A stretch of DNA of 9,444 nt from a virus (IMGVR_UViG_2648501797_000003:1-9444); one strand, 5' to 3'; positions 1-9,444 are shown, numbered from the stretch's first letter. Made by a program: numbers and translations. Notes: generated by a model not told the origin, from the letters alone.

Positions 1-783
1 CTAAATCATCGCAATGCCGTAATGCTGCCTGATGCGAAATGGTCGCCGGAAACTTAAAACAGAAGCGGAAGTCATCTGTGGTCTGCTCACGCCAGCGCAG
101 GACAACCTCGGGTTCTCAACCGCGCCGATAACCTGTTTCTCTTCTGCGCTTAACGCCACCCAGAATTCCTGATACTTAACAGTTCCAAGGCGTGCGGCAG
201 ACTCGCCTTTTGCGATCAGTTCCGGGCGGCGATCATCCGATTCATGCCCTACATGAACCTCTGTCGCACTCCCTTCAATGACACGTTCGGCTTCGTCCTG
301 ATCGAAGATGCCAGCAAACCCAAATGCGAGACGCGCACACTGGATCAGCGTCTTGTGACGAAGCATACGGGTAGGGTGGGACTGCCATGGCTGAGTGTTG
401 CGTTTGCACTCTCCCATGTACTCAGTAACGATGGTCGGGTGTGTGCGGTCTTTCCGGTATATCTTGCAGGTACACGCGCCTTCTTCCTTGTCGTAGGCAA
501 ACTCCATTCCATCAAACTGAGGATGTTCGTTGATGATTCGAGCCCAGCCGTCAACGCCGACTACAGGAACAATTCCACCTTTATCCGGGAATGCATAAAT
601 CTCTTTTGTCCACGGGTTCAGTCCGTACTGGTTGGCGACGATCAGCAGTGCCGTGAACTGCTCATCAGTGACATTCCCACCCTTAAATGCTGTATTTTTC
701 AGAGTGTTCATCAGGTCAGTTCCGGCATCCATGCCGAGGCGGGAGGCAAGCTTCCCGGCCATTGTAGAAAGTGCTGTGCTCAT
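1..783 (-). CDS. bet: Bet / Red-beta family single-strand annealing recombinase (260 aa)
   Basis: Translation from ATG at 783-781 (MSTALSTMAGKLASRLGMD...LLIVANQYGLNPWTKEIYAFPDK...VPVVGVDGW..RIINE..QFDGM...CTC.IYRKDR.HP...TE.M.EC.....PWQSHP.RMLRHK..IQCARLAFGFAGI.D.DEAER) is near-collinear with lambda Bet as I recall it. SD GAGGGG lies 6 nt upstream of this ATG. Stop TAG is at 3-1. The ORF-track start at 834 adds 17 residues with no homology and overlaps the upstream gene. Confidence 0.9.
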   Translation of the reverse strand: MSTALSTMAGKLASRLGMDAGTDLMNTLKNTAFKGGNVTDEQFTALLIVANQYGLNPWTKEIYAFPDKGGIVPVVGVDGWARIINEHPQFDGMEFAYDKEEGACTCKIYRKDRTHPTIVTEYMGECKRNTQPWQSHPTRMLRHKTLIQCARLAFGFAGIFDQDEAERVIEGSATEVHVGHESDDRRPELIAKGESAARLGTVKYQEFWVALSAEEKQVIGAVENPRLSCAGVSRPQMTSASVLSFRRPFRIRQHYGIAMI

Positions 784-799
784 AGAATTCCCCTCAAAG

Positions 800-1084
800 T
801 TAAAACGGGCAGCCGGTGCGGTGGTCCCAGTCATATTCCGCCTGGGCGTAAGCTACTGCCGAGATGAGATCGTTATATGCCTCGCCAGCTGCATCGCTGC
901 GGAGGCCTTCGTATGGGCTTTTGTCCATCGGCACAGAGAAGCGGAACAGGCCTGACGGCTCTTTCGGCAGGGCGTCGATAATTTCCTGCGCCCGATCGTC
1001 AATCCACTTTTGCTTCTCTTCGGTTAGCGACTGTTCAGCCCATTTCCTTTCTTCGATAGCGTCGTATGCGCGGTAGGCGTTCAT
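800..1084 (-). CDS. gam: Gam-like host-nuclease (RecBCD) inhibitor, 94 aa from ATG 1084 (GTG at 1090 also possible)
   Basis: N-terminus MNAYRAYDAIEERKWAEQ resembles lambda GamS MNAYYIQDRLEAQSWARHY; similar length (~95 aa), charged helical character, and position immediately upstream of bet as in lambda. Start sits 7 nt after the stop of the upstream gene with an SD-like GAGGUG spanning that stop. Homology is from memory. Confidence 0.6.
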   Translation of the reverse strand: MNAYRAYDAIEERKWAEQSLTEEKQKWIDDRAQEIIDALPKEPSGLFRFSVPMDKSPYEGLRSDAAGEAYNDLISAVAYAQAEYDWDHRTGCPF

Positions 1085-1091
1085 AAGCACC

Positions 1092-2063
1092 TCAGTAACT
1101 GATACCGGTATGGGGAATGCGGCCGTCTTTAACCGCTGTAAGCACCTCGATAGCCTGATCCCGAGTAAGGCTGGTATTGGCCAGAAGAGCTTTGACGATT
1201 TCAGTGCCTACAGCCTTGCGGTGCTTAACGTCGGCTTCGCGGCGAGCCTGCTCATCGGCTTTACGTTTCTCCTCAGCCAGGCGGGCCTGTTCGCGTTGCT
1301 CTGCCTCGCGGCGGATGCGATCGGCTTCTTCCTGAGCTTTGCGGCGCTCCGCTTCGATAGCGGCCTGCTTGTCAGCCTCAGCTTTCTTCTCGGCTGCAAT
1401 GCGATCTCGCTCTGCCTGCTCAGCTTGTGCTTTCAACACAGCTTCGCGATGCGCCGCTTCTTCACGTTCACGCGGTGCGCGCTGCTCAACTTCTCGGGCT
1501 GCTGCGGCGGCTGCCATTCGCTTAATTTCTTCTTCATGGGCAATGCGCTGGCGCTCAGCCTCAGCTGCTTTATCTGCCTGCTCTCGGTCGAAAGCGTCAT
1601 TCATCAGCATGGCCATTTCGTGGTCAGACTCAATCCGAGCTGCCAGCTGCCGATCGAACTCTTCATTCATGGCCAGTGCTTCGACGTGAAGGGCGTTCAT
1701 GGCTTCTTCGGCCTTAATGCGTTCCTGCTCCGCCTCCCATTCGGTCAACGGGCGACGCACTTCATCTTTCAGTGCATCGAGACGCTCACGGACAACGCGG
1801 CGGCTTTCATCAATCTGCTTTGGCAGCGCCTTCAGCTCAGCGACCAGGGCTTTACCTGCGTTGTCGATGTAGGTTTTAGAGCGCGCGACCTTGTGAGCCA
1901 TGGATGCGATAGCATCGCGGCCTTTTTTGGTGGTCACGTCCGGCACCAGACTGCGAGCCTCTTTTTCGATCGCTTCGATAAGCGGATCGAGTTGGTCGTT
2001 ATTGGTGAAAACCGCCATCGCGTTCTTTTTCTCGATGACGACTAAATCCATTATTTCGCTCAT
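1092..2063 (-). CDS. Hypothetical coiled-coil protein, 323 aa; structured N-terminal ~110 aa, then long Ala/Glu/Arg/Lys-rich low-complexity helical region
   Basis: Long ORF from ATG 2063-2061 with SD AGGGGA about 5 nt upstream; stop TGA at 1094-1092 directly abuts the gam-like start. Central region is repetitive (AEAERQRIA..., AAAAAARE..., KAQAEQAERDRIAAEKKAEADKQAAIEAERRKAQEEADRIRREAEQ). The antisense frames are open only because of this GC-rich repetitive coding. Family not recognised. Confidence 0.75.
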   Translation of the reverse strand: MSEIMDLVVIEKKNAMAVFTNNDQLDPLIEAIEKEARSLVPDVTTKKGRDAIASMAHKVARSKTYIDNAGKALVAELKALPKQIDESRRVVRERLDALKDEVRRPLTEWEAEQERIKAEEAMNALHVEALAMNEEFDRQLAARIESDHEMAMLMNDAFDREQADKAAEAERQRIAHEEEIKRMAAAAAAREVEQRAPREREEAAHREAVLKAQAEQAERDRIAAEKKAEADKQAAIEAERRKAQEEADRIRREAEQREQARLAEEKRKADEQARREADVKHRKAVGTEIVKALLANTSLTRDQAIEVLTAVKDGRIPHTGISY

Positions 2064-2312
2064 GGTTTCCCCTGAAATTTGGTTGTAAGAATCCCGGCAC
2101 CGTATTGGCTGCCTGATAGCTCAGTTAAATTCGTGCGCTGATATCCGGGTTTATATTGCCTGGGAGTCATTAATCAATCTGGCGTGGAGTGCGATTCGTG
2201 GCTAAATCCCCCGCCGAACGCAAAGCCGCGCAGGAGGTAAAGATCTGTTTGGCTGGAAGTGAGGGCGTGGTAATGTGTTTACCTATTCTTCATTTGCTTA
2301 GGTGGCGTGAAA
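2064..2312. promoter_or_regulatory. Divergent intergenic control region between the leftward recombination operon and the rightward small-ORF operon
   Basis: 249 bp non-coding between divergent gene starts (2063 minus, 2313 plus). Candidate leftward sigma70 promoter: -35 TTGATT (revcomp of 2172-2177), 16-nt spacer, -10 TATAAA (revcomp of 2150-2155). Short repeated motifs TTGSCTG (2105, 2156, 2249) and GGCGTG (2181, 2265, 2303). Promoter calls are by eye only. Confidence 0.35.
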
Positions 2313-2510
2313 ATGCTGTATACAGTGACGTTCAATGAGACAGAGCGGAAGGAAGATATTGAACTTAGCGCGGATGTCAGGGCGGGTGATTTGCTGTCAT
2401 TAACGCTCGATGGCGTGAAAGATGACTACACGGTGATGACAGTAGGCGGTCCTATCATTGGCAATACCTGTGTCCCATCAATAATCCGGGTAAAAAAAGC
2501 TCAGAAATAA
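2313..2510 (+). CDS. Hypothetical small acidic protein (65 aa from ATG 2313; ORF track starts at GTG 2307)
   Basis: ORF with SD AGGTGG (2300-2305) 7 nt upstream of ATG 2313; first gene of the rightward operon. No helix-turn-helix evident, so not obviously Cro-like. Confidence 0.5.
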   Translation: MLYTVTFNETERKEDIELSADVRAGDLLSLTLDGVKDDYTVMTVGGPIIGNTCVPSIIRVKKAQK

Positions 2511-2519
2511 TAATGTATA

Positions 2520-2546
2520 ATCCCCTCCACAGCAGAGGGGATTTTT
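2520..2546 (+). terminator. GC-rich hairpin with short U-tract (terminator-like) that sequesters the SD of the next gene
   Basis: 8-bp perfect stem ATCCCCTC / GAGGGGAT (2520-2527 with 2535-2542), 7-nt loop CACAGCA, then TTTT immediately followed by ATG 2547. The 3' arm contains the GAGGGG Shine-Dalgarno of the 2547 ORF. Confidence 0.45.
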
Positions 2547-2729
2547 ATGACAAACAAAAAAATGACACCTGCCGAAAAGCTCAAAGCTTCGCGGAAGCGG
2601 TATAAAAAAATCTGGCTTCAACTGGATATCGCTAACGCCAAGCGATTTGGCGAGAAAGAAGTGCTTTCCGTTGACACCTACAGATCGCCCTATGAAACGC
2701 GCAAGAAAAGAGGAAGGACAGCAGATTGA
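2547..2729 (+). CDS. Hypothetical small basic protein (60 aa), possibly nucleic-acid binding
   Basis: [42 protein letters not shown]...; Lys/Arg-rich; a beta-strand-then-helix pattern ([14 protein letters not shown]) is compatible with a ribbon-helix-helix fold, but this is a guess. Confidence 0.5.
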
Positions 2730-2989
2730 CAACATCATCCTGGAACATAGCAGCCAAATCGAAAGACGAGCAGGACAAAGTCAACGTTGACCTCGCCGCG
2801 TCCGGCGTCGCTTACAAAGAACGCCTGAACATGCCGGTTGTCGCCGAAGTGGTGGCCAGACAACAGCCTGAACACCTGCGGGACTACTTCATGGAGCGCG
2901 TCCGCTACTACCGCGAGCAGAGCATCCAGCTTCCCCGCGCATCCGATCCGCGCTATCTGGAAATGGCTGAGCAGAACGCCAAGAAATAG
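2726..2989 (+). CDS. Hypothetical protein (87 aa) with putative TTG start overlapping the upstream stop (TTGA)
   Basis: ORF in track; strong SD AGGAAGG (2711-2717) 8 nt upstream of TTG 2726; the first in-frame ATG (2831) has no SD. Confidence 0.45.
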
Positions 2990-3095
2990 CGATTTCCTCG
3001 CCTATGCTCATTTTGCTTTTATCCCCGGGAGGGGCGATAATTACTTAGTCAGTCTGGACAACTGACAACTTTACCCCGGCGCCAAGTGGGGACAC

Positions 3096-3563
3096 ATGGC
3101 GCAAACACTGCAATTTGAGAAAAGTTATCAAAACGTACTGATTCCCGCAGAGCCGGGAACCAGCGAATACCTGCAACTTATCCCCGTAGGGCAACTGCTT
3201 TGCGGTGAGTTCCGCAAGCCCAGGAATTACGCATTCCACAAGAAGTTCTTCAAACTTCTGACTCTCGGGTATCACTACTGGACGCCTTCCGGTGGTCTCA
3301 TTGAGCCCGCGGAGCGTACCCTCATATCCGGTTTTATCGACTTTCTCTCATCCGACCTCGATCAGCGCGCTGCACTCCAGAACGCCGCGGAGATGTATCT
3401 CTCCTCGGTCGGTATATCCCGTTCCCGCGATATGGCGCTGCTGAAACACTTCGAATCCTTCCGCGAGTGGGCAACCATTCAGGCTGGCTTTTATGACGAA
3501 TACCAGATGCCTGACGGCAGCCGTCGTCGTGTCGCAAAGTCGATCTCCTTTCTGGCTCGATGA
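3096..3563 (+). CDS. Hypothetical protein (155 aa), nin-region-like position
   Basis: ORF with ATG 3096 preceded by GTGGGGA. Sequence feels like a conserved enterobacterial prophage protein of unknown function (possibly a DUF-type family), but I cannot name it reliably. Confidence 0.6.
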   Translation: MAQTLQFEKSYQNVLIPAEPGTSEYLQLIPVGQLLCGEFRKPRNYAFHKKFFKLLTLGYHYWTPSGGLIEPAERTLISGFIDFLSSDLDQRAALQNAAEMYLSSVGISRSRDMALLKHFESFREWATIQAGFYDEYQMPDGSRRRVAKSISFLAR

Positions 3564-3650
3564 CCAGCAGGTTGACTACTACAGCGTGAAGAGAATGCCT
3601 GTCGTCAAAGGTGGGCGGCTTGAGCTAACCATTACCGAAATGGAGTCCGC

Positions 3651-3791
3651 ATGAGCCGTGACGTTATCGAACGCATCCGCGACCGCTGGCAAAAGCTTCG
3701 CCTCCTGCGTAGCCGCGGCACCGTGCTGGTCGACTACAAAATATTACGCAATTTCGTCCGTATCTATAAGCGCCTGGGAGAAGCAGCATGA
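3651..3791 (+). CDS. Hypothetical small Arg-rich protein (46 aa), below the ORF-track length cutoff
   Basis: ATG 3651 with SD GGAG (3642-3645) 5 nt upstream; translation MSRDVIERIRDRWQKLRLLRSRGTVLVDYKILRNFVRIYKRLGEAA; its stop TGA (3789-3791) overlaps ATG 3788 of the next gene (ATGA coupling). Confidence 0.35.
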   Translation: MSRDVIERIRDRWQKLRLLRSRGTVLVDYKILRNFVRIYKRLGEAA

Positions 3792-4477
3792 CAGCTCAAT
3801 ACTTGGAATTTGTTCGCCAGCAGCTGATAGTGGCCACCGCCGATCTGAGTGGTGCGACGAAAGGGCAACTGGTAGCTCTTGCAGAGAACGCGCAATTTAC
3901 CGCTACGGCGCGCAGCCGTGGCCGGAAGAAGGTGTATAGCGAGGTGAAGCAAAAAATGGTTAACCCGGATGGACCGCCGATGAGCGGCAGCCAGTCCCGC
4001 GCTAAGGGTTCCTCAATCGCTCTCGTTCTGCCCGTTGAATACTCGACAGCCAGCTGGCGTCGCGCCCTCCTGTCGCTGGAAGACCACCAGAAATCCTGGT
4101 TGCTGTGGAACTACAGCGACAATATCCGCTGGGAGCACCAGGAGACGATAACCCGCTGGGCATGGGAGCAATTCAGCGACAAGCTGGCCGGTGTGCGCAT
4201 TGCAAAGAAAACAGTCGATCGCCTCCGTCAACTTATCTGGCTGGCCGCACAGGACGTCAAAGCCGAGCTGGCAGGACGGGAGACGTATGAATACCAGTCG
4301 CTGGCGGAGCTGGTTGGTGTAGCAAAGTCCACATGGACAGAAACCTACCTCCCTCATTGGCTGGCGCTGCGCAGCAGTTTTGTGAAGCTTGATAGCGACG
4401 CTCTCATGGCGGTAACGCGATCACGTTCACAACAAAAGGCGTCAAATTTAGATGTAAGTCTTGCAAAACCGAACTGA
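3788..4477 (+). CDS. Hypothetical protein (229 aa); candidate late-gene regulator (Q-like by position only)
   Basis: ORF with SD GGGAG 7 nt upstream. It is the last early gene, immediately upstream of a promoter-terminator-tRNA arrangement like lambdoid Q-pR'-tR'. It has no cysteines, so it is not a lambda-Q-type zinc-finger protein. The functional call is inference. Confidence 0.55.
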   Translation: MTAQYLEFVRQQLIVATADLSGATKGQLVALAENAQFTATARSRGRKKVYSEVKQKMVNPDGPPMSGSQSRAKGSSIALVLPVEYSTASWRRALLSLEDHQKSWLLWNYSDNIRWEHQETITRWAWEQFSDKLAGVRIAKKTVDRLRQLIWLAAQDVKAELAGRETYEYQSLAELVGVAKSTWTETYLPHWLALRSSFVKLDSDALMAVTRSRSQQKASNLDVSLAKPN

Positions 4478-4489
4478 AAGGCATATATT
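4461..4489 (+). promoter_or_regulatory. Candidate sigma70 promoter (pR'-like late promoter)
   Basis: -35 TTGCAA (4461-4466), 17-nt spacer, -10 TATATT (4484-4489), overlapping the stop codon of the 229-aa gene; predicted start near 4496, about 50 nt upstream of the terminator hairpin. Confidence 0.35.
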
Positions 4490-4544
4490 TCATGTAAATC
4501 TGATATCGTCGCCATAGCTTCGATTGTCGACACATAAAGAATTC

Positions 4545-4578
4545 AAGCCCGAGGTTAACGCCTTGGGCTTTTTCATTT
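4545..4578 (+). terminator. Intrinsic terminator (tR'-like)
   Basis: 10-bp stem AAGCCCGAGG / CCTTGGGCTT (one G-U pair), 6-nt loop TTAACG, followed by TTTCATTT. Confidence 0.6.
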
Positions 4579-4580
4579 CA

Positions 4581-4655
4581 GGGTCAGAAGCACAGCGGTT
4601 GTGCGTTCGGCTGTTAACCGAATGGTAGAAGGTTCGAATCCTTCCTGTCCCGCCA
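4581..4655 (+). tRNA. tRNA-Asn (anticodon GUU)-like gene, 75 nt including encoded CCA
   Basis: Hand-folded cloverleaf: acceptor 4581-4587 with 4645-4651 (6 bp plus one T-T mismatch), D-stem GCAC/GTGC, anticodon stem TTCGG/CCGAA with loop CTGTTAA (anticodon GTT at 4613-4615), 5-nt variable loop, T-stem GAAGG/CCTTC with canonical T-loop TTCGAAT, discriminator G, CCA. Non-canonical A at position 8. Confidence 0.6.
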
Positions 4656-4661
4656 AATAAT

Positions 4662-4732
4662 GGCCTGACCTGATGACGGGCTCATAATCCAATCCATCAG
4701 GGGCGCTGCTGCAACAGCGTCACAGGCCGCCA
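4662..4732 (+). other. Degenerate tRNA-like remnant (possible decayed tRNA with CAU-type anticodon loop motif)
   Basis: GGCCTGA (4662-4668) pairs with ACAGGCC (4722-4728) and is followed by G-CCA. Inside are a 7-bp hairpin (4669-4675 with 4695-4701) whose loop contains CTCATAA, and a 5-bp hairpin CGCTG/CAGCG (4704-4719). No D-arm and no canonical T-loop. Confidence 0.25.
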
Positions 4733-4789
4733 GACCAAGCCTGGGTATTTTCGGTCATCACCGACATTGCTATTACCCTCATGCTTATT

Positions 4790-4818
4790 GCCTGCCTAAC
4801 CGCAGGCTTTTTTATTTT
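4790..4818 (+). terminator. Intrinsic terminator
   Basis: 6-bp stem GCCTGC / GCAGGC, 6-nt loop, followed by TTTTTTATTTT. Confidence 0.6.
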
Positions 4819-4920
4819 CAGGGTCGCGGGAATCACCCTCGACGCTTTGTTGGTAAATCAGCCCGACGGCCCTGACCTTCTCACACACAGCTTCCCGATC
4901 TTTCATCGGAGGCGGTAACT

Positions 4921-5340
4921 ATGGCTAAGCGTATGCAAGACAAAGAGAGCATTGCCGGGATGTCCTGGCTGGTTCTGCTGATCATTGCTGGTTGGGGCGG
5001 CCTTGTCCGATTCCTGATGGATGTAAAGCAGGGCAAAGCAAAATGGAGCTGGATAAATGCTTTTGCGCAGATTGTGGTTTCGGCTTTTACCGGGGTTATT
5101 GGTGGGCTCATCAGCATTGAAGGTGGCCTGAGTATTTACATGATACTGGCCACTGCCGGTGACCAGGTTAACAGCGAGCTATGGTGGGCGATTCAGAACG
5201 GTTATATGACGGTTAAAGCCGCAGGGGTTCGTGTCCGTGAAATAGAGACCGTCAGTGATGGTTATCAGTTTTTTGGCTTCGATATCGAAAATGACTATAT
5301 CGCTGGCTTCGACCGCGGGTCATGGGGAGAGAGATTTTAA
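4921..5340 (+). CDS. Holin-like small membrane protein (139 aa) with dual-start motif
   Basis: SD GGAGG (4908-4912) 8 nt upstream of ATG 4921. N-terminus M-A-K-R-M (Met1 and Met5 separated by Lys-Arg); hydrophobic helices around residues 11-33 and 43-79; charged C-terminal region. First gene after the late promoter/tRNA region, where lambdoid holins sit. Confidence 0.6.
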   Translation: MAKRMQDKESIAGMSWLVLLIIAGWGGLVRFLMDVKQGKAKWSWINAFAQIVVSAFTGVIGGLISIEGGLSIYMILATAGDQVNSELWWAIQNGYMTVKAAGVRVREIETVSDGYQFFGFDIENDYIAGFDRGSWGERF

Positions 5341-6221
5341 TGGCGACTAACGATTTTAAACCCTTCGCTACTGGTAGCGGGGCAAACGTATTATCACAAG
5401 CTGATTATGACGCACTGTCGGCCAGAACAACTGGCTTTTTAAGTGGCAAAGCGTCTTCGGCCCAGGTCAACAAAGCTTTAAGGCAGGCATCAACTATTGC
5501 GGCGGTTGTGGCGCAGTTTATTTCTGATAACAGCGGCGATGACACCCTTGATAACGGTAATTTACCTACCTTACTGGCTAGTCTCGAAAGCGCCCTCCTC
5601 AAGTCCTCCCCTGGGCGGTTACAGAATATCGTTAGCTTTACCGCAAATGGGACCTACACCCCATCGCCAGGAACCAAACATGTAAAAGTTATTGTTACTG
5701 GCGGTGGTGGCGGTGGTGGTGGTTGTCAGGGAACTTCAGGATCTGAATCAGTTTCAGGTGGCGGCGGCGGTGCTGGTGGTACGGCCATTGGTTATTTTGC
5801 TGTAACTGAATCCAGCTATGCAGTCACTGTAGGTGCTGGTGGTTCTGCTGGCGTTGGTGCTGTCCAGGGTGGAACAGGCGGAACCTCAATCATTAACGGC
5901 ATTAGCGGATTGGGCGGAGATGGTGGTCAGAAATCAGGGATCACTACGCTGGCTGGTGGGAAAGGCGGTATTTCTATTGGTGGCTCGGTTAACCTTCCCG
6001 GAGGTTACGGCACTGATGGGCAAAATGGCTCCCTGATTATCCCCGGCAATGGCGGCTCGTCATATTGGGGCGGCGGTGGTCGTGGGGGCGCACGCGGGGG
6101 CGTGGCAGGGGATTGTTATGGTGCCGGTGGTGGTGGCGCATATGATGCTGCCATGTCTGGCAACTCCTACAATGGCGGACAGGGGAAAGCAGGGATTGTA
6201 TATATTGAGGAATATTCTTAA
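5340..6221 (+). CDS. Glycine-rich protein (293 aa from ATG 5340), tail-fibre/adhesin-like
   Basis: ATG 5340 overlaps the upstream stop (TAATG) with GGGGAGAGAG upstream; the ORF-track start at 5322 lies inside the upstream gene. N-terminal ~110 aa ordinary composition (MATNDFKPFATGSGANVLSQADYDAL...), then polyglycine tracts (G8, G5, GGxGG) separated by short variable segments. Family not identified. Confidence 0.7.
   Translation: MATNDFKPFATGSGANVLSQADYDALSARTTGFLSGKASSAQVNKALRQASTIAAVVAQFISDNSGDDTLDNGNLPTLLASLESALLKSSPGRLQNIVSFTANGTYTPSPGTKHVKVIVTGGGGGGGGCQGTSGSESVSGGGGGAGGTAIGYFAVTESSYAVTVGAGGSAGVGAVQGGTGGTSIINGISGLGGDGGQKSGITTLAGGKGGISIGGSVNLPGGYGTDGQNGSLIIPGNGGSSYWGGGGRGGARGGVAGDCYGAGGGGAYDAAMSGNSYNGGQGKAGIVYIEEYS
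5700..5723 (+). repeat. In-frame trinucleotide simple-sequence repeat (GGY)8 encoding Gly8
   Basis: GGC GGT GGT GGC GGT GGT GGT GGT read directly from the sequence, within the Gly-rich CDS. Confidence 0.8.
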
Positions 6222-6391
6222 TGGTAAGCAAGTATGCAGTCCTGAAAGAATGCGTGGTAGAAAACATTATTGTTGCTGATGATAATTACTCTCCTGATGA
6301 TTTCGAAGTCGTAAAATATAGCGACGAAACATTTTGCCAGCCAGGCATGTTGTACAATAAAGAGGATGGTTTATTTTATGATGATAAATAA
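6221..6391 (+). CDS. Hypothetical small protein (56 aa), translationally coupled to the Gly-rich gene
   Basis: ATG 6221 overlaps stop TAA 6219-6221 (TAATG); translation MVSKYAVLKECVVENIIVADDNYSPDDFEVVKYSDETFCQPGMLYNKEDGLFYDDK. Below the ORF-track cutoff. Could be a short chaperone or a fragment of a tail-fibre assembly protein; unproven. Confidence 0.35.
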   Translation: MVSKYAVLKECVVENIIVADDNYSPDDFEVVKYSDETFCQPGMLYNKEDGLFYDDK

Positions 6392-6438
6392 TCATCAAGA
6401 ATAAATAACATTATCTACATATCTACACATTACCAATC

Positions 6439-6463
6439 AACCGGCTTATGCCGGTTTTTTATT
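6439..6463 (+). terminator. Strong intrinsic terminator directly abutting the start of the 694-aa gene
   Basis: 7-bp stem AACCGGC / GCCGGTT, 4-nt loop TTAT, followed by TTTTTTATT; ATG of the next gene at 6473. Confidence 0.7.
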
Positions 6464-6472
6464 GGGGCGACC

Positions 6473-8557
6473 ATGAGTGAATACGATACCGGCAATCCTG
6501 TGCCGTCTGCATCAATACCTGATGCATGGGATAATATGCAGTCTATTGACAGGTTCGCTAATAGTAGTGATGAAACTATTACCACGCGTACAGGTAAGCA
6601 GTTAGACACTCTGCATGGCATCAATGTAAAGTCTGATAACCAACTTAATGAACAACAAGATACCTTTGAATTATCTCAATCCGAAAGGGAATCCTCTTTC
6701 GAAGAAAAATCAAATGAATTTGAATCGCGCTTCTCCTCTCAGTTATCGGCGCAGGAATCAACATTTTCAGAATCTCAATCTGATAAAGAAAACCGCTTTC
6801 AGCAGTTCCTGAATACTTCAGGATACGTGTTCCTTGGCGATTATCAGGACGGCCCATTCCAGTTTAGTGCCCGTAACCAGTACATCCGTTACGGCAATGA
6901 GTATTACCGCCTGAATGCTGCTACTGACGTCGGCTTTACGACCACCGGAACCGATGCGACCAGCTTTGCGAACGACGTTACTCACTTCGTTCTGATGGAT
7001 GGTGATACGCTTCGCCAAGACCTGGGTTCAGGCGAAGGAGCAATGAAGGTTTACCGGAACGCCTCACCTCTGGCCAGAATCATTCGCTCCTCGATTTTTG
7101 AATACCTTACTGAAGCTGATCAGCAGGCGTTGCTCACAATTCCTGGCGTTAATGTTATCGCTGACTACGCGTTAAAAAAAGCTATAGCTGATGGAGTGAT
7201 GGTACTGGATATTCCGTGGAATGTCGGTGCGTTAAATTTCGGGCTTGACCCCGCAATGCTTCCATTAGGTTTTCAATTTATAGGGTGGGGTTGCCGACGC
7301 CCATATACAATTGATGACGATAACAGTTTTCTGAATTGCGGAGTCGTCATCCGCGTAGCTGCTGGTGCAAGTTTTCCATTTTATTCAACAGGCAGGCATG
7401 TATTCCGGGATATTGTTTTTGATGGCCGAGATAAAACAACGTACCTTTTTTATTCGCCAAATACTGCAACCCAGTTCAACGGCACCCGACTTGAGGGGTG
7501 TGGATTTTATCGGTTTGCGATCGGGATTGGCTGGGCTTCAGGAGGAACAGCCAGGTACATCGGAACAATGAAAGCATATTTCTGCTCAATATCCGGAAAC
7601 GGGGATGGAGTCAGGAATTTAATAGACTCCATGATGTTTGGTTGCACAATCAATGCTAATGATCGAGGAGTGGCCCTTACCGGTGGGGCAAACAATAACT
7701 TTTTTGGAGGATGCCGGAACGAATGGAACACCGGCGATAACTGGTATGCGTACCAGTCGGTGGAGAACCAGATTTTCGGCGAACTGTGCGACAGGGCCGG
7801 AAGGGGAGGTGTGGTCGCCGGGGCGAAATCCTCATGGATTTTAAACGGCGTTAACGTCCGGCGCAGTGGTGCTAATCAACCCGTGGGTAATGACTATTCC
7901 GCAAACTTTATTATTATTGATGACGGTAAAATTGAACTCTCAGGGGTAAGAACTGGTGTCGGTGCGAATGACAGCGGTGACGGAGGGACAATCTCGCCAT
8001 CCTACAACGTATCAGCTCTTGGCTCTGGCGGGGGGACCTTGCAGGTTTCCGGAAGTGACATGACTGGTTTTGTTACTTCAGCAATTAACCAGAAGGCGAC
8101 CACGTTAAATAAGTCGATAACCGGCAACCTTGGTATGGACGACGATGTAAATATTGGTATGACCCAGGTTGTTAAAGGCAGGCGAATTATTGGTTCACAG
8201 TCATCAGGTACGTTAGCAGGCTCTGCGGGCGCAACGTTATCGCTGACCAAGACCAACATATTCCAGAATTATTTCGATACATATATTACCCGTTCAATCC
8301 TAATTGAATGTCGAATTGGTAGCCAGTCATTTGGTGACGATATTAAAATTCCCGTCAGATTCAGAAGGGAGAATCTTTATTATCTGGATATCCTGACCTC
8401 GGGAATTGTTGCCAGCTCTGCACGCATTGGGCTTTCAGGGACTGGCGTAACGGTATCATTGTCCATTAACAGCTCAACCGGTCTGGTTACTGTTCAGTTG
8501 ACAAATGTTGATGGTCTGGAAAGAACCGTTAATGTATCAATGTTGCCCTCAATGTAG
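6473..8557 (+). CDS. Tail-fibre / tailspike-like protein (694 aa); probable receptor-binding protein with beta-helix-like body
   Basis: Long ORF. N-terminal acidic Ser/Glu/Phe repeats with roughly 11-residue spacing of Phe (TFELSQSERESSFEEKSNEFESRFSSQLSAQESTFSESQSDKENRF), typical of fibre coiled-coils; central and C-terminal Gly/Asn/Ser/Thr-rich stretches resembling beta-helix tailspike proteins. No specific family confirmed. Confidence 0.7.
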   Translation: MSEYDTGNPVPSASIPDAWDNMQSIDRFANSSDETITTRTGKQLDTLHGINVKSDNQLNEQQDTFELSQSERESSFEEKSNEFESRFSSQLSAQESTFSESQSDKENRFQQFLNTSGYVFLGDYQDGPFQFSARNQYIRYGNEYYRLNAATDVGFTTTGTDATSFANDVTHFVLMDGDTLRQDLGSGEGAMKVYRNASPLARIIRSSIFEYLTEADQQALLTIPGVNVIADYALKKAIADGVMVLDIPWNVGALNFGLDPAMLPLGFQFIGWGCRRPYTIDDDNSFLNCGVVIRVAAGASFPFYSTGRHVFRDIVFDGRDKTTYLFYSPNTATQFNGTRLEGCGFYRFAIGIGWASGGTARYIGTMKAYFCSISGNGDGVRNLIDSMMFGCTINANDRGVALTGGANNNFFGGCRNEWNTGDNWYAYQSVENQIFGELCDRAGRGGVVAGAKSSWILNGVNVRRSGANQPVGNDYSANFIIIDDGKIELSGVRTGVGANDSGDGGTISPSYNVSALGSGGGTLQVSGSDMTGFVTSAINQKATTLNKSITGNLGMDDDVNIGMTQVVKGRRIIGSQSSGTLAGSAGATLSLTKTNIFQNYFDTYITRSILIECRIGSQSFGDDIKIPVRFRRENLYYLDILTSGIVASSARIGLSGTGVTVSLSINSSTGLVTVQLTNVDGLERTVNVSMLPSM

Positions 8558-8565
8558 GAGTGAAA

Positions 8566-8745
8566 ATGGAAGACGAAACAGAACTGACCGAACCGCCATT
8601 TGAAACCTGGTTCAGAGACGTGGTTGAACTGGTTAAAAATGGCGGACATTCAATGGATATTGTTGCCTATAAGGGGGAATGGGTTGATTATTTTTCGGAA
8701 GGATTAACACCAGAAGATGCGTTTATAAAAAGAATGGCTCTTTAA
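8566..8745 (+). CDS. Hypothetical small acidic protein (59 aa from ATG 8566)
   Basis: SD AGGAG (8556-8560) overlaps the stop of the 694-aa gene, 5 nt upstream of ATG 8566; very acidic (MEDETELTEPPFETWFRDVVELV...). Confidence 0.5.
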   Translation: MEDETELTEPPFETWFRDVVELVKNGGHSMDIVAYKGEWVDYFSEGLTPEDAFIKRMAL

Positions 8746-8858
8746 ATAACCGACCGAAAATAAATGTCAGGGAGTAACGTATTGATAATTTTCGACAAAA
8801 CGGCAGAGCATAGTGAAAACCGCCTGTGGATGATGGCCAACATGGGGAGGATTCTGTA

Positions 8859-9176
8859 ATGGGCTTTCCATCACCCGCGACGGATTACACGGAACAGCGA
8901 TTAACGGTTAACTCGATCTGCAATGTCGGTCCAAATACGCGCCTCTTCGAGCAATCTGGCGGTTACGTTGTGCTGGATGTCTCCCTGAAACCAAAGCAGG
9001 CCAGTCAGGTTCTGATCCAGCACGGCGGCGGGACGGAGCTTGCCACGCTGAGAGGAAGGTCGCTGATTACCGAAGATGGTGAAGCGATCGAGGGCGAGGC
9101 CCTGGACGATGTTACTGTCATCGGTGTAGTGACGTTTACTATCTGCGATGTGCGCCAGGACAATGCGGTTGTTTAG
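8859..9176 (+). CDS. UmuD'-like protein lacking the N-terminal pro-peptide (HumD-like; 105 aa)
   Basis: SD GGAGG (8846-8850) 8 nt upstream of ATG 8859. N-terminus MGFPSPATDYTEQRLTVNSIC matches the UmuD segment GFPSPAADYVEQRIDLNQLL that begins at the Cys24-Gly25 self-cleavage site (13 of 20 identical by my recall). C-terminal TVIGVVTFTI resembles UmuD DVFGVVIHVV. No GDSM serine motif seen and no umuC-like ORF downstream. Confidence 0.65.
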   Translation: MGFPSPATDYTEQRLTVNSICNVGPNTRLFEQSGGYVVLDVSLKPKQASQVLIQHGGGTELATLRGRSLITEDGEAIEGEALDDVTVIGVVTFTICDVRQDNAVV

Positions 9177-9339
9177 TTGCAGTCAATTGATGGAAGATTT
9201 CGCGTGGCAGGCGTCTTGGGGCATGGGTGGGGCATGAGAAATCAGTGAATTTCGCCAAACATTGCAAACAACGTATGTTGGATGCTATCTCCAGCCATTA
9301 AAAATGGCGCTCCTGGACGATATTTGTCGATTTTTAAAT

Positions 9340-9444
9340 TTACCGCGTCACGCAGTTAAAGTGGCGGGCATACTCTTCAAGGCTGGTGATCCCCAACCGC
9401 ACCCATTTAGGATGCGACCATTGCGGTAGACCGATGTAAATCAT
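9340..9444 (-). pseudogene. 5' fragment (34 codons plus stop) of a DUF72 / YecE-like host gene, apparently interrupted
   Basis: Minus-strand translation from ATG at 9444-9442: MIYIGLPQWSHPKWVRLGITSLEEYARHFNCV then TR-stop. This matches my recollection of the E. coli YecE (DUF72) N-terminus, which should continue EGNTT...; divergence begins near 9348. Identification from memory. Confidence 0.45.

Follow-up and report, generated by a model that had tools for sequence, protein, structure and literature searches.

The DNA considered here is a stretch of 9,444 nucleotides (nt) from a virus (IMGVR_UViG_2648501797_000003:1-9444), referred to below as the window, by which we mean the whole stretch that was analysed. 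From position 1 to 9444 it corresponds to the whole of a defective prophage island, about 9.4 kb long and located between a DUF72 gene and yecD in the Escherichia coli chromosome. Our subject is the minus-strand coding sequence at 1092-2063, which encodes a protein of 323 amino acids (aa) and is termed agt-like because of its homology to agt of phage phi80. The initial annotation of this DNA had placed a 323-aa gene here, immediately ahead of a gam-bet pair. That arrangement is borne out by the minus-strand open reading frame (ORF), by a RefSeq coding sequence and by the two genes that follow on the same strand, gamL (800-1084) and bet (1-783).

The agt-like ORF is real and intact. Its 323 codons and stop are preceded by a ribosome-binding site, AGGGGA, 5 nt ahead of the ATG, the frame is full length, and an apparently intact prophage contig of 45 kb has a copy that shares 99.7% identity with it. 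In E. coli chromosomes 100% identical to the window, RefSeq carries the product as a hypothetical protein, WP_025269996.1, and the PHROG 1376 profile, labelled 'unknown function', matches it end to end with an E-value of 3e-100. The whole island is found in 4 of 5,426 complete E. coli genomes with identical sequence and the gene is therefore not an assembly artefact of repetitive DNA, a concern that had been raised. The GC content of the agt region, 0.57-0.62 as opposed to about 0.51 elsewhere in the window, agrees with the GC-rich character remarked on earlier. The opposite strand has an ORF of 311 aa, which merely shadows this biased composition.

Homology to phi80 Agt and coupling to gamL

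A translated search of phage genomes identified a named homologue, phi80 PHI80_40 (GenBank JX871397), with 48% identity over the full length and an E-value of 2e-65. Its GenBank label reads 'agt: anti-toxin for Gam; Mog (modifier of Gam)', and gamL, the gene directly after it, is labelled 'host RecBCD/SbcCD enzymes inhibitor; toxic without Mog'. The earlier description of a protein of unknown function can thus be replaced by reference to an annotated homologue. This relative is concerned with recombination and nuclease control, in line with a general guess made at the outset, and is not a characterised protein from some unrelated process.

The likeness extends beyond sequence identity. The phi80 protein, at 322 aa, shares the N-terminal region, the charged helix and a C-terminal module ending ...I.Y, and its gene is placed 7 nt upstream of a phi80-type gamL in the order kil-agt-gamL-single-strand annealing protein gene-exo. 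There are differences. The N-terminal part around aa 55-100 has diverged, the C-terminal module is of another sequence type, the annealing protein is RecT-like in phi80 but Bet-like in the window, and the window gene resides in a deleted prophage remnant that lacks a repressor and the kil-N region. Taken together, sequence, architecture and synteny make membership of the phi80 Agt family well supported. In phi80 itself gamL is reportedly a toxic gene and agt is said to be its own antidote, apparently encoding a modifier protein; the phi80 lysogens are said to be phenocopies of recD and sbcCD. A functional role for the window protein would be carried over from the phi80 annotation. The label 'hypothetical protein' at this locus can nevertheless give way to Agt-like, GamL partner.

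The partner gene, gamL (800-1084, minus strand), is predicted to encode a 94-aa phi80-type inhibitor of the host RecBCD and SbcCD enzymes, an assignment based on the NCBIfam equivalog NF033500 (phi80_GamL, E-value 7e-42), PHROG 1050 and RefSeq annotation. The protein is acidic, with a net charge of -8, and displays 47% identity to phi80 GamL. Across 10 of 10 aligned GamL proteins a C-terminal Cys-Pro-Phe is invariant, as are W27, R31 and Y68-N69, and these are candidate functional residues of the inhibitor.

The two genes are separated by a compact junction, TGAGGTGCTTATG (1082-1094, minus strand). The agt stop codon, TGA at 1094-1092, is followed by a spacer of 7 nt and then the gamL ATG at 1084, with a Shine-Dalgarno sequence, TGAGG, overlapping the stop. 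The spacing is kept in 43 of 44 related loci, and that of phi80 is identical. This recurrence makes translational coupling of agt and gamL, as initially suggested, plausible.

How widespread is the family? With the N-terminal 165 aa as query, 5,270 cluster representatives were recovered at an E-value of 1e-3 or below and 3,922 at 1e-10 or below, each standing for a cluster defined at 50% identity, so that Agt is a very large family. Neither Pfam nor NCBIfam has a model for it. Pfam, NCBIfam and PADLOC scans of the window protein and 30 diverse relatives returned no meaningful family, and the PADLOC models of defence systems matched none of the window Agt, GamL and D3 orf53. The papers searched contain no further discussion of agt, and a 2025 survey of recombination modules in lambdoid phages, which refers to GamL, is silent on the Agt family in its main text. 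The wider value of the assignment lies in this combination of a very large family, the lack of a Pfam or NCBIfam model and a position a few to a few hundred nt upstream of five types of annealing protein.

Architecture and length variation

Family alignments of 30 and 117 sequences divide the protein into a conserved N-terminal region, a variable charged stretch and a conserved C-terminal module. The N-terminal region, which is about 115-125 aa long across the family and serves as its signature, comprises aa 1-125 in the window protein (1689-2063, minus strand) and equals PHROG 17211. Asp42, Gly48, Arg49, Lys78, Pro105 and Glu110 are invariant in the 30-sequence alignment. In the larger alignment Arg49 alone is invariant, the other five being at least 90% conserved. 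Within this region aa 41-110 (1734-1943, minus strand) form a basic segment, predicted to be helical with a predicted local distance difference test (pLDDT) score of 83-98. It has a pI of 9.7 and a net charge of +4, compared to a family median of +3. On a helical wheel Arg49, Lys63, Lys71, Lys78, Arg88 and Arg103 fall on one face, within a 100-degree arc, which may constitute a binding surface. The suggestion that the protein mimics DNA is unlikely to apply to this basic, conserved part.

An acidic helical segment, aa 126-170 (1554-1688, minus strand), recognised from alignments and charge, carries an HEMALLMN..FDR motif and is mosaic; aa 111-170 have a net charge of -11. It leads into a helical rod of variable length, aa 171-290 (1194-1553, minus strand), defined by composition (Ala 25%, Glu 21%, Arg 17%, Lys 8%) and by the AlphaFold model. 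The C-terminal module, aa 291-323 (1095-1193, minus strand), ends in ...G.I....I.Y, is evident in family alignments that include phi80, D3-like and Vibrio members, where it is about 45 aa long, and is modelled as a short helix and tail.

In the window protein AlphaFold places helices at aa 27-39, 46-187, 198-296 and 301-312; confidence is low at a break spanning aa 186-197. This model, from a shallow alignment, has a pLDDT of 78.6 and a predicted template modelling score (pTM) of 0.25. For a natural variant of 221 aa, modelled from 117 sequences, the values improve to 91.4 and 0.52, respectively, with helices at aa 12-20, 22-37, 46-194 and 199-210. Such long helices suggest an elongated helical rod and not a globular domain with a tail. 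The structured N-terminal domain that had been envisaged gives way, in the models, to one helix running from aa 46 to about 190 after two short helices. We caution that these are monomer models and that a single helix, a hairpin and an oligomer look alike at this level.

The charged region had been termed a coiled coil. Over aa 155-290 only 7-14% of residues are hydrophobic and heptad a/d occupancy is 0.12-0.25, which speaks against a canonical coiled coil there; occupancies of 0.62-0.75 are reached in aa 57-112 only. The same stretch has 39-61% Glu, Arg and Lys, and opposite-charge pairs at i/i+4 occur at 0.17-0.38 per residue. With the long predicted helices these values may point to an ER/K-type single helix, for which 25% Ala would be atypical. 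When the family profile was compared with the PDB, charged stalks alone matched (ATP synthase subunit b, Zuotin and DDRGK1 among them). Given the low hydrophobicity and these matches, the charged region looks like a single-helix, stalk-like spacer, a description that fits better than a classic coiled coil. Searches of PDB sequences with the single protein and with the profile gave compositional matches to charged helices only, whilst Foldseek found nothing in the PDB and, in BFVD, unnamed family members only. Several alignment members (P0154, P0167, P0184, P0238 and P0242) carry extra, less charged insertions of 40-100 aa in the rod, which may be additional small domains.

The gene had also been called highly repetitive and prone to length variation. 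The former does not hold, as Tandem Repeats Finder reported nothing for agt and the repeats present are short, imperfect direct repeats of 8-31 nt. The latter does, since homologues have lengths of 221, 262, 275, 281, 323, 334 and up to about 400 aa and two of the deletions map to direct repeats. The 262-aa variants (P0002 and P0003) correspond to an exact 183-nt deletion between two copies of the 12-bp repeat AGCTGAGGCTGA, at 1555-1566 and 1372-1383 on the minus strand. The 275-aa variants (P0016 and P0018) correspond to an exact 144-nt deletion between copies of the 8-bp repeat CGCATTGC, at 1540-1547 and 1396-1403 on the same strand. Every length change observed is in frame.

Sequence conservation is uneven. 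Among 80 close loci the N-terminal 120 aa are 77-100% identical (88-100% in all but one). Identity varies between 18 and 100% over aa 121-165 and between 22 and 100% in the C-terminal module, where a distinct low group is found at 22-36%. In sequence terms agt is a mosaic gene. Many database copies are marked 'partial' and break off within the charged region, and PHROGs assigns the N-terminal (17211) and C-terminal (21365) parts to separate families; assemblies and gene calls seem often to break within agt.

Genomic contexts and the role of Agt

Three sets of loci were compared. The first comprises 80 enterobacterial loci from IMG/VR picked by similarity to Agt, the second 80 Pseudomonas loci picked with D3 orf53, for which the ORF-based context calls are crude and noisy in GC-rich DNA, and the third, a reverse test, 80 loci picked by GamL, 78 of them assessable, in which Agt was scored within 3 kb. 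In the enterobacterial set GamL is the next gene in 39-43 of 80 loci, followed by Bet or RecT and an exonuclease, and lambda-type Gam with RecT occurs in six. About 31 loci are without any Gam and carry Arf-Erf, Erf with SSB (a protein that binds single-stranded DNA), a Sak4-like ATPase with SSB, or a DnaQ-like exonuclease. GamL is present in none of the 80 Pseudomonas loci. A Bet-like or Erf gene was found in 55 of these, typically then a YqaJ exonuclease, whilst the crude ORF calls labelled no annealing protein in the other 25. From the GamL side, Agt is upstream in 28 of 78 loci and absent within 3 kb in 50. The two genes are thus often neighbours with a fixed junction, and neither depends on the other.

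Agt is very tightly linked to annealing-protein genes. The distance from the Agt stop to the start of the annealing protein, of which there are five types, has a median of 304 nt in enterobacteria and 8 nt in Pseudomonas. In the curated annotation of D3 and Ab31 the homologue is directly before erf or bet with a 7-8 nt stop-start junction. Sf6 gp33 and a Vibrio phage protein are further family members that adjoin erf-ssb. Whether GamL or Arf-Erf comes next, the Agt proteins in front can be 98-100% identical in both end modules, and there is no partner-specific variation. One Klebsiella allele of 97.5% identity (locus L008) belongs to a phage that lacks GamL.

Two details of these contexts deserve mention. 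Gene 33 of Sf6, the Agt homologue, is immediately preceded (L085, 2867-2988) by a terminator like lambda tL2A and by bsq4, a 'boundary sequence' in the curated annotation, which suggests that the gene starts at a mosaic and transcription boundary. In Klebsiella-type Arf-Erf modules that follow Agt (loci L010, L012, L013, ~6950-7560, and related loci) two genes of about 100 aa come after erf. An identity with Abc1 and Abc2 was considered for them but is not supported, as PHROGs gives only PHROG 38486 (unknown function) and a D5-like regulator; a RecBCD inhibitor is not recognisable in these modules.

Our preferred reading, to which we would assign a probability of roughly 55%, is that the window protein is an Agt-family protein and the counterpart of phi80 Agt/Mog, that it tempers GamL at this locus and that the family acts on a shared host or DNA target. 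The protein would be an elongated, almost wholly helical rod consisting of a basic N-terminal segment, a charged spacer helix of free length and a small C-terminal module, and would be made together with GamL by way of the conserved stop-7 nt-start junction. On the basis of homology to phi80 it is expected to temper the harm that results from inhibition of RecBCD and SbcCD by GamL, so that the cell would be shifted from full nuclease loss to a milder state. With respect to target and biochemical mode, we infer for the family a general role as the leading gene of phage recombination modules; most probably its conserved basic face would serve to act on the DNA end or on a nuclease of the host that processes double-strand ends. 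The 'antidote' effect in phi80 may be one manifestation of this broader activity. The distribution of Agt favours a target common to all the modules, and the protein is probably not a dedicated binder of GamL.

Several observations weigh against this reading. The absence of Agt from 50 of 78 GamL loci, which include GamL proteins 98-99% identical to that of phi80, indicates that a phage carrying GamL does not generally need Agt. The D3 erf and exo genes substitute for lambda Red without orf53, and the Ab31 orf38-37-36 'BAS' operon works in recombineering without the Agt homologue orf39; hence Agt is not a core recombination factor. The functional claim derives from GenBank annotation and from what is reported of the phi80 genes. 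Searches of Pfam, NCBIfam, PADLOC, the PDB and Foldseek revealed no domain, fold or motif to tie Agt to the binding of DNA or nucleases.

A variant to be entertained more tentatively dispenses with GamL altogether. Agt could be an extra, GamL-independent component of single-strand-annealing modules in Enterobacteria, Pseudomonas and Vibrio, a rod-shaped modulator of host double-strand-end nucleases or protector of DNA ends. In operons without Gam, Ab31 orf39-38-37-36 for example, it would take the 'gam slot'. At the other extreme Agt might be a dedicated antitoxin, akin to a type II system, with the sole function of binding and sequestering an acidic, DNA-mimic-like GamL through its basic face. 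The phi80 labels ('anti-toxin for Gam', 'toxic without Mog') point in that direction, together with the antidote-first gene order and fixed 7-nt junction, the complementary charges (+4 for Agt aa 41-110, -8 for GamL) and the survival of agt and gamL, both intact, in a remnant devoid of exo and part of bet. The distribution argues against such a dedicated pair. Among the close enterobacterial homologues about 31 of 80 loci lack GamL, and in Pseudomonas all 80 do. Agt is missing from 50 of 78 GamL loci, and Agt proteins whose end domains are identical go with modules of both kinds, those with GamL and those without it. The protein is also 323 aa in length with no DNA-binding antitoxin domain detected by Pfam or NCBIfam. 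An obligate type II toxin-antitoxin pair is at odds with the occurrence of each gene without the other, which qualifies the toxin/antidote label given to the phi80 genes. Dedicated sequestration of GamL is possible at the window locus but fails to explain the family, and as a full account of Agt we judge it unlikely, even if it heads the rivals to the preferred reading, followed by an unrelated early function, a coupling leader and, last, an artefact or dead gene.

An unrelated early-operon function (exclusion, say, or takeover of the host, or a tether to envelope or nucleoid), encoded at a frequent mosaic boundary beside recombination modules, strikes us as a little less probable again. Some records name Agt homologues TolA-like or 'cell envelope biogenesis protein', in Sf6 cIII, kil and two small genes intervene between the homologue and erf and a boundary sequence is found just upstream of the homologue, the homologue in Vibrio phage BT-1011 comes after erf-ssb, and recombination works without an Agt homologue. 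Set against these are the tight linkage to annealing genes of five types (the medians of 304 and 8 nt), the lack of a membrane anchor or of a match to the TolA model, and the genetic link between agt and GamL in the phi80 GenBank annotation. The 7-8 nt junctions, with GamL and with Bet or Erf in Ab31 and D3, and the freely variable middle of the ORF would suit an expression device, a long frame that delivers ribosomes to the next gene and so sets the dose of GamL or annealing protein, its product mattering little. We think this improbable, since both ends are strongly conserved over Enterobacteria, Pseudomonas and Vibrio, with invariant or nearly invariant residues, and all length changes are in frame. 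Nor need we dwell on a chance frame in biased DNA or a decaying gene. The 311-aa shadow ORF and the heavily deleted surroundings might invite that view, but the frame is of full length and shares 99.7% identity with its counterpart in the apparently intact prophage, and identity across four complete genomes together with thousands of homologues effectively excludes it.

Comparisons with known systems are instructive. In Pseudomonas phages such as Ab31 and D3, bet or erf is directly preceded by the Agt homologue, in the place that gam has in lambda, and the phi80 annotation suggests a functional link to inhibition of host nucleases. Unlike lambda Gam and GamL, Agt is three times larger and its conserved part is basic instead of an acidic DNA mimic. 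A Gam-type mimic was rejected as an identity, as there is no match to a Gam PHROG or NCBIfam model and the conserved segment has a net charge of +4. The enterobacterial Agt co-occurs with Gam proteins and is not their replacement. The P22 proteins Arf, Abc1 and Abc2 offer another parallel, being products of non-essential recombination-module genes that modulate recombination or RecBCD, and Arf-Erf often follows Agt; neither sequence nor size relates them to Agt, which occurs alongside them, not instead of them.

Charged stalks (TolA domain II, ATP synthase subunit b, Zuotin and DDRGK1) resemble Agt in composition and in the long, uninterrupted predicted helix. The resemblance is compositional only, the conserved end modules of Agt being unrelated, although 'TolA' appears as a name in several Agt homologue records. 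TolA itself was discarded given the absence of a Pfam or NCBIfam match and an N-terminus that is charged instead of a hydrophobic span. The RecE N-terminal region, or a nuclease-less 'RecE-2', was dismissed on an hhalign probability of 0.06-0.1% and a BLASTP E-value of 1.1. A supposed likeness of the N-terminal region to DUF1351 or Sipho_Gp157 of Gram-positive phages was dropped for want of a Pfam match.

Should the family indeed modulate host end-nucleases, this would explain how phages without Gam protect linear DNA. Agt would then be a practical addition to recombineering outside E. coli, in hosts where lambda Gam fails. Published recombineering operons, Ab31 BAS and D3 erf/exo, are without the Agt homologue. 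The authors of the BAS work described the operon as lacking a RecBCD inhibitor, and efficiency rose with lambda Gam or Plu-gamma in some species, lambda Gam bringing no gain in P. putida and P. syringae.

The surrounding prophage island

Similarity to intact Klebsiella-type prophages is confined to 113-2154 and has sharp ends, at 113 and at 2154/2155. At the first of these the 3' end of bet (1-783, minus strand) has been swapped for unrelated sequence, at about 113, and overlaps the neighbouring DUF72 gene. The product, a Bet/RecT-type annealing protein, is truncated or chimeric, with Pfam RecT and PHROG 252 spanning aa 18-239 only. The remnant has also lost exo, whilst agt and gamL are intact. 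At the other end a conserved 5' leader of agt (2064-2154, minus strand) stops at the junction of the deletion that removed the kil-to-P region. Thus kil, N, the immunity genes, O and P are deleted between agt and the nin region, and the leader is joined directly to nin-region genes on the opposite strand, with no repressor or kil-N region left.

Intact relatives (Mulock, ST15-VIM1phi2.1 and phi80) display the order repressor ... kil-agt-gamL-bet/recT-exo ... xis-int. The initial annotation put the gene at the head of its operon. This is true of the deleted remnant but not of the intact relatives, where the remainder of the pL operon, a kil-like gene included, is upstream. For the same reason Agt does not replace kil/cIII genes, as had been supposed, the kil-like genes of intact phages being located upstream of it.

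About 90 nt 5' of agt, at 2150-2177 on the minus strand, there is a promoter-like TTGATT-16 nt-TATAAA, noted by eye. It was not listed by a consensus scan, since the -10 hexamer ends in A. The candidate straddles the deletion junction and could be a hybrid promoter for agt-gamL in the remnant.

At least six further genomes among the matches listed carry the right half of the island (5160-9444), with 99.9-100% identity. Near its attP site, phage phi80 is homologous over about 300 bp to the 3' end of yecD, so the island may occupy a phi80-type attachment site.

The remaining features are on the plus strand where a strand can be given. In the nin region, 2726-2989 (plus strand) encodes a homologue of the DNA polymerase III subunit theta (NCBIfam PRK10969, E-value 1.4e-30), which is annotated in related Klebsiella phages also. 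RefSeq annotates a tRNA-Asn at about 4581-4655 (plus strand), just 3' of the antiterminator Q gene. At about 4933-5340 (plus strand) a holin fragment is fused to a fragment of DUF2612 (baseplate-type), both being RefSeq pseudogenes. This marks a further internal deletion, the second, by which lysis and tail genes have been brought together near 5160. The region 5322-8557 (plus strand) encodes a glycine-rich protein of 299 aa and a 694-aa protein without an assigned family, possibly a tail fibre or spike. The GC content falls to 0.36-0.42 around 6150-6900, and an S24-peptidase-like ORF is located at 8826-9176.

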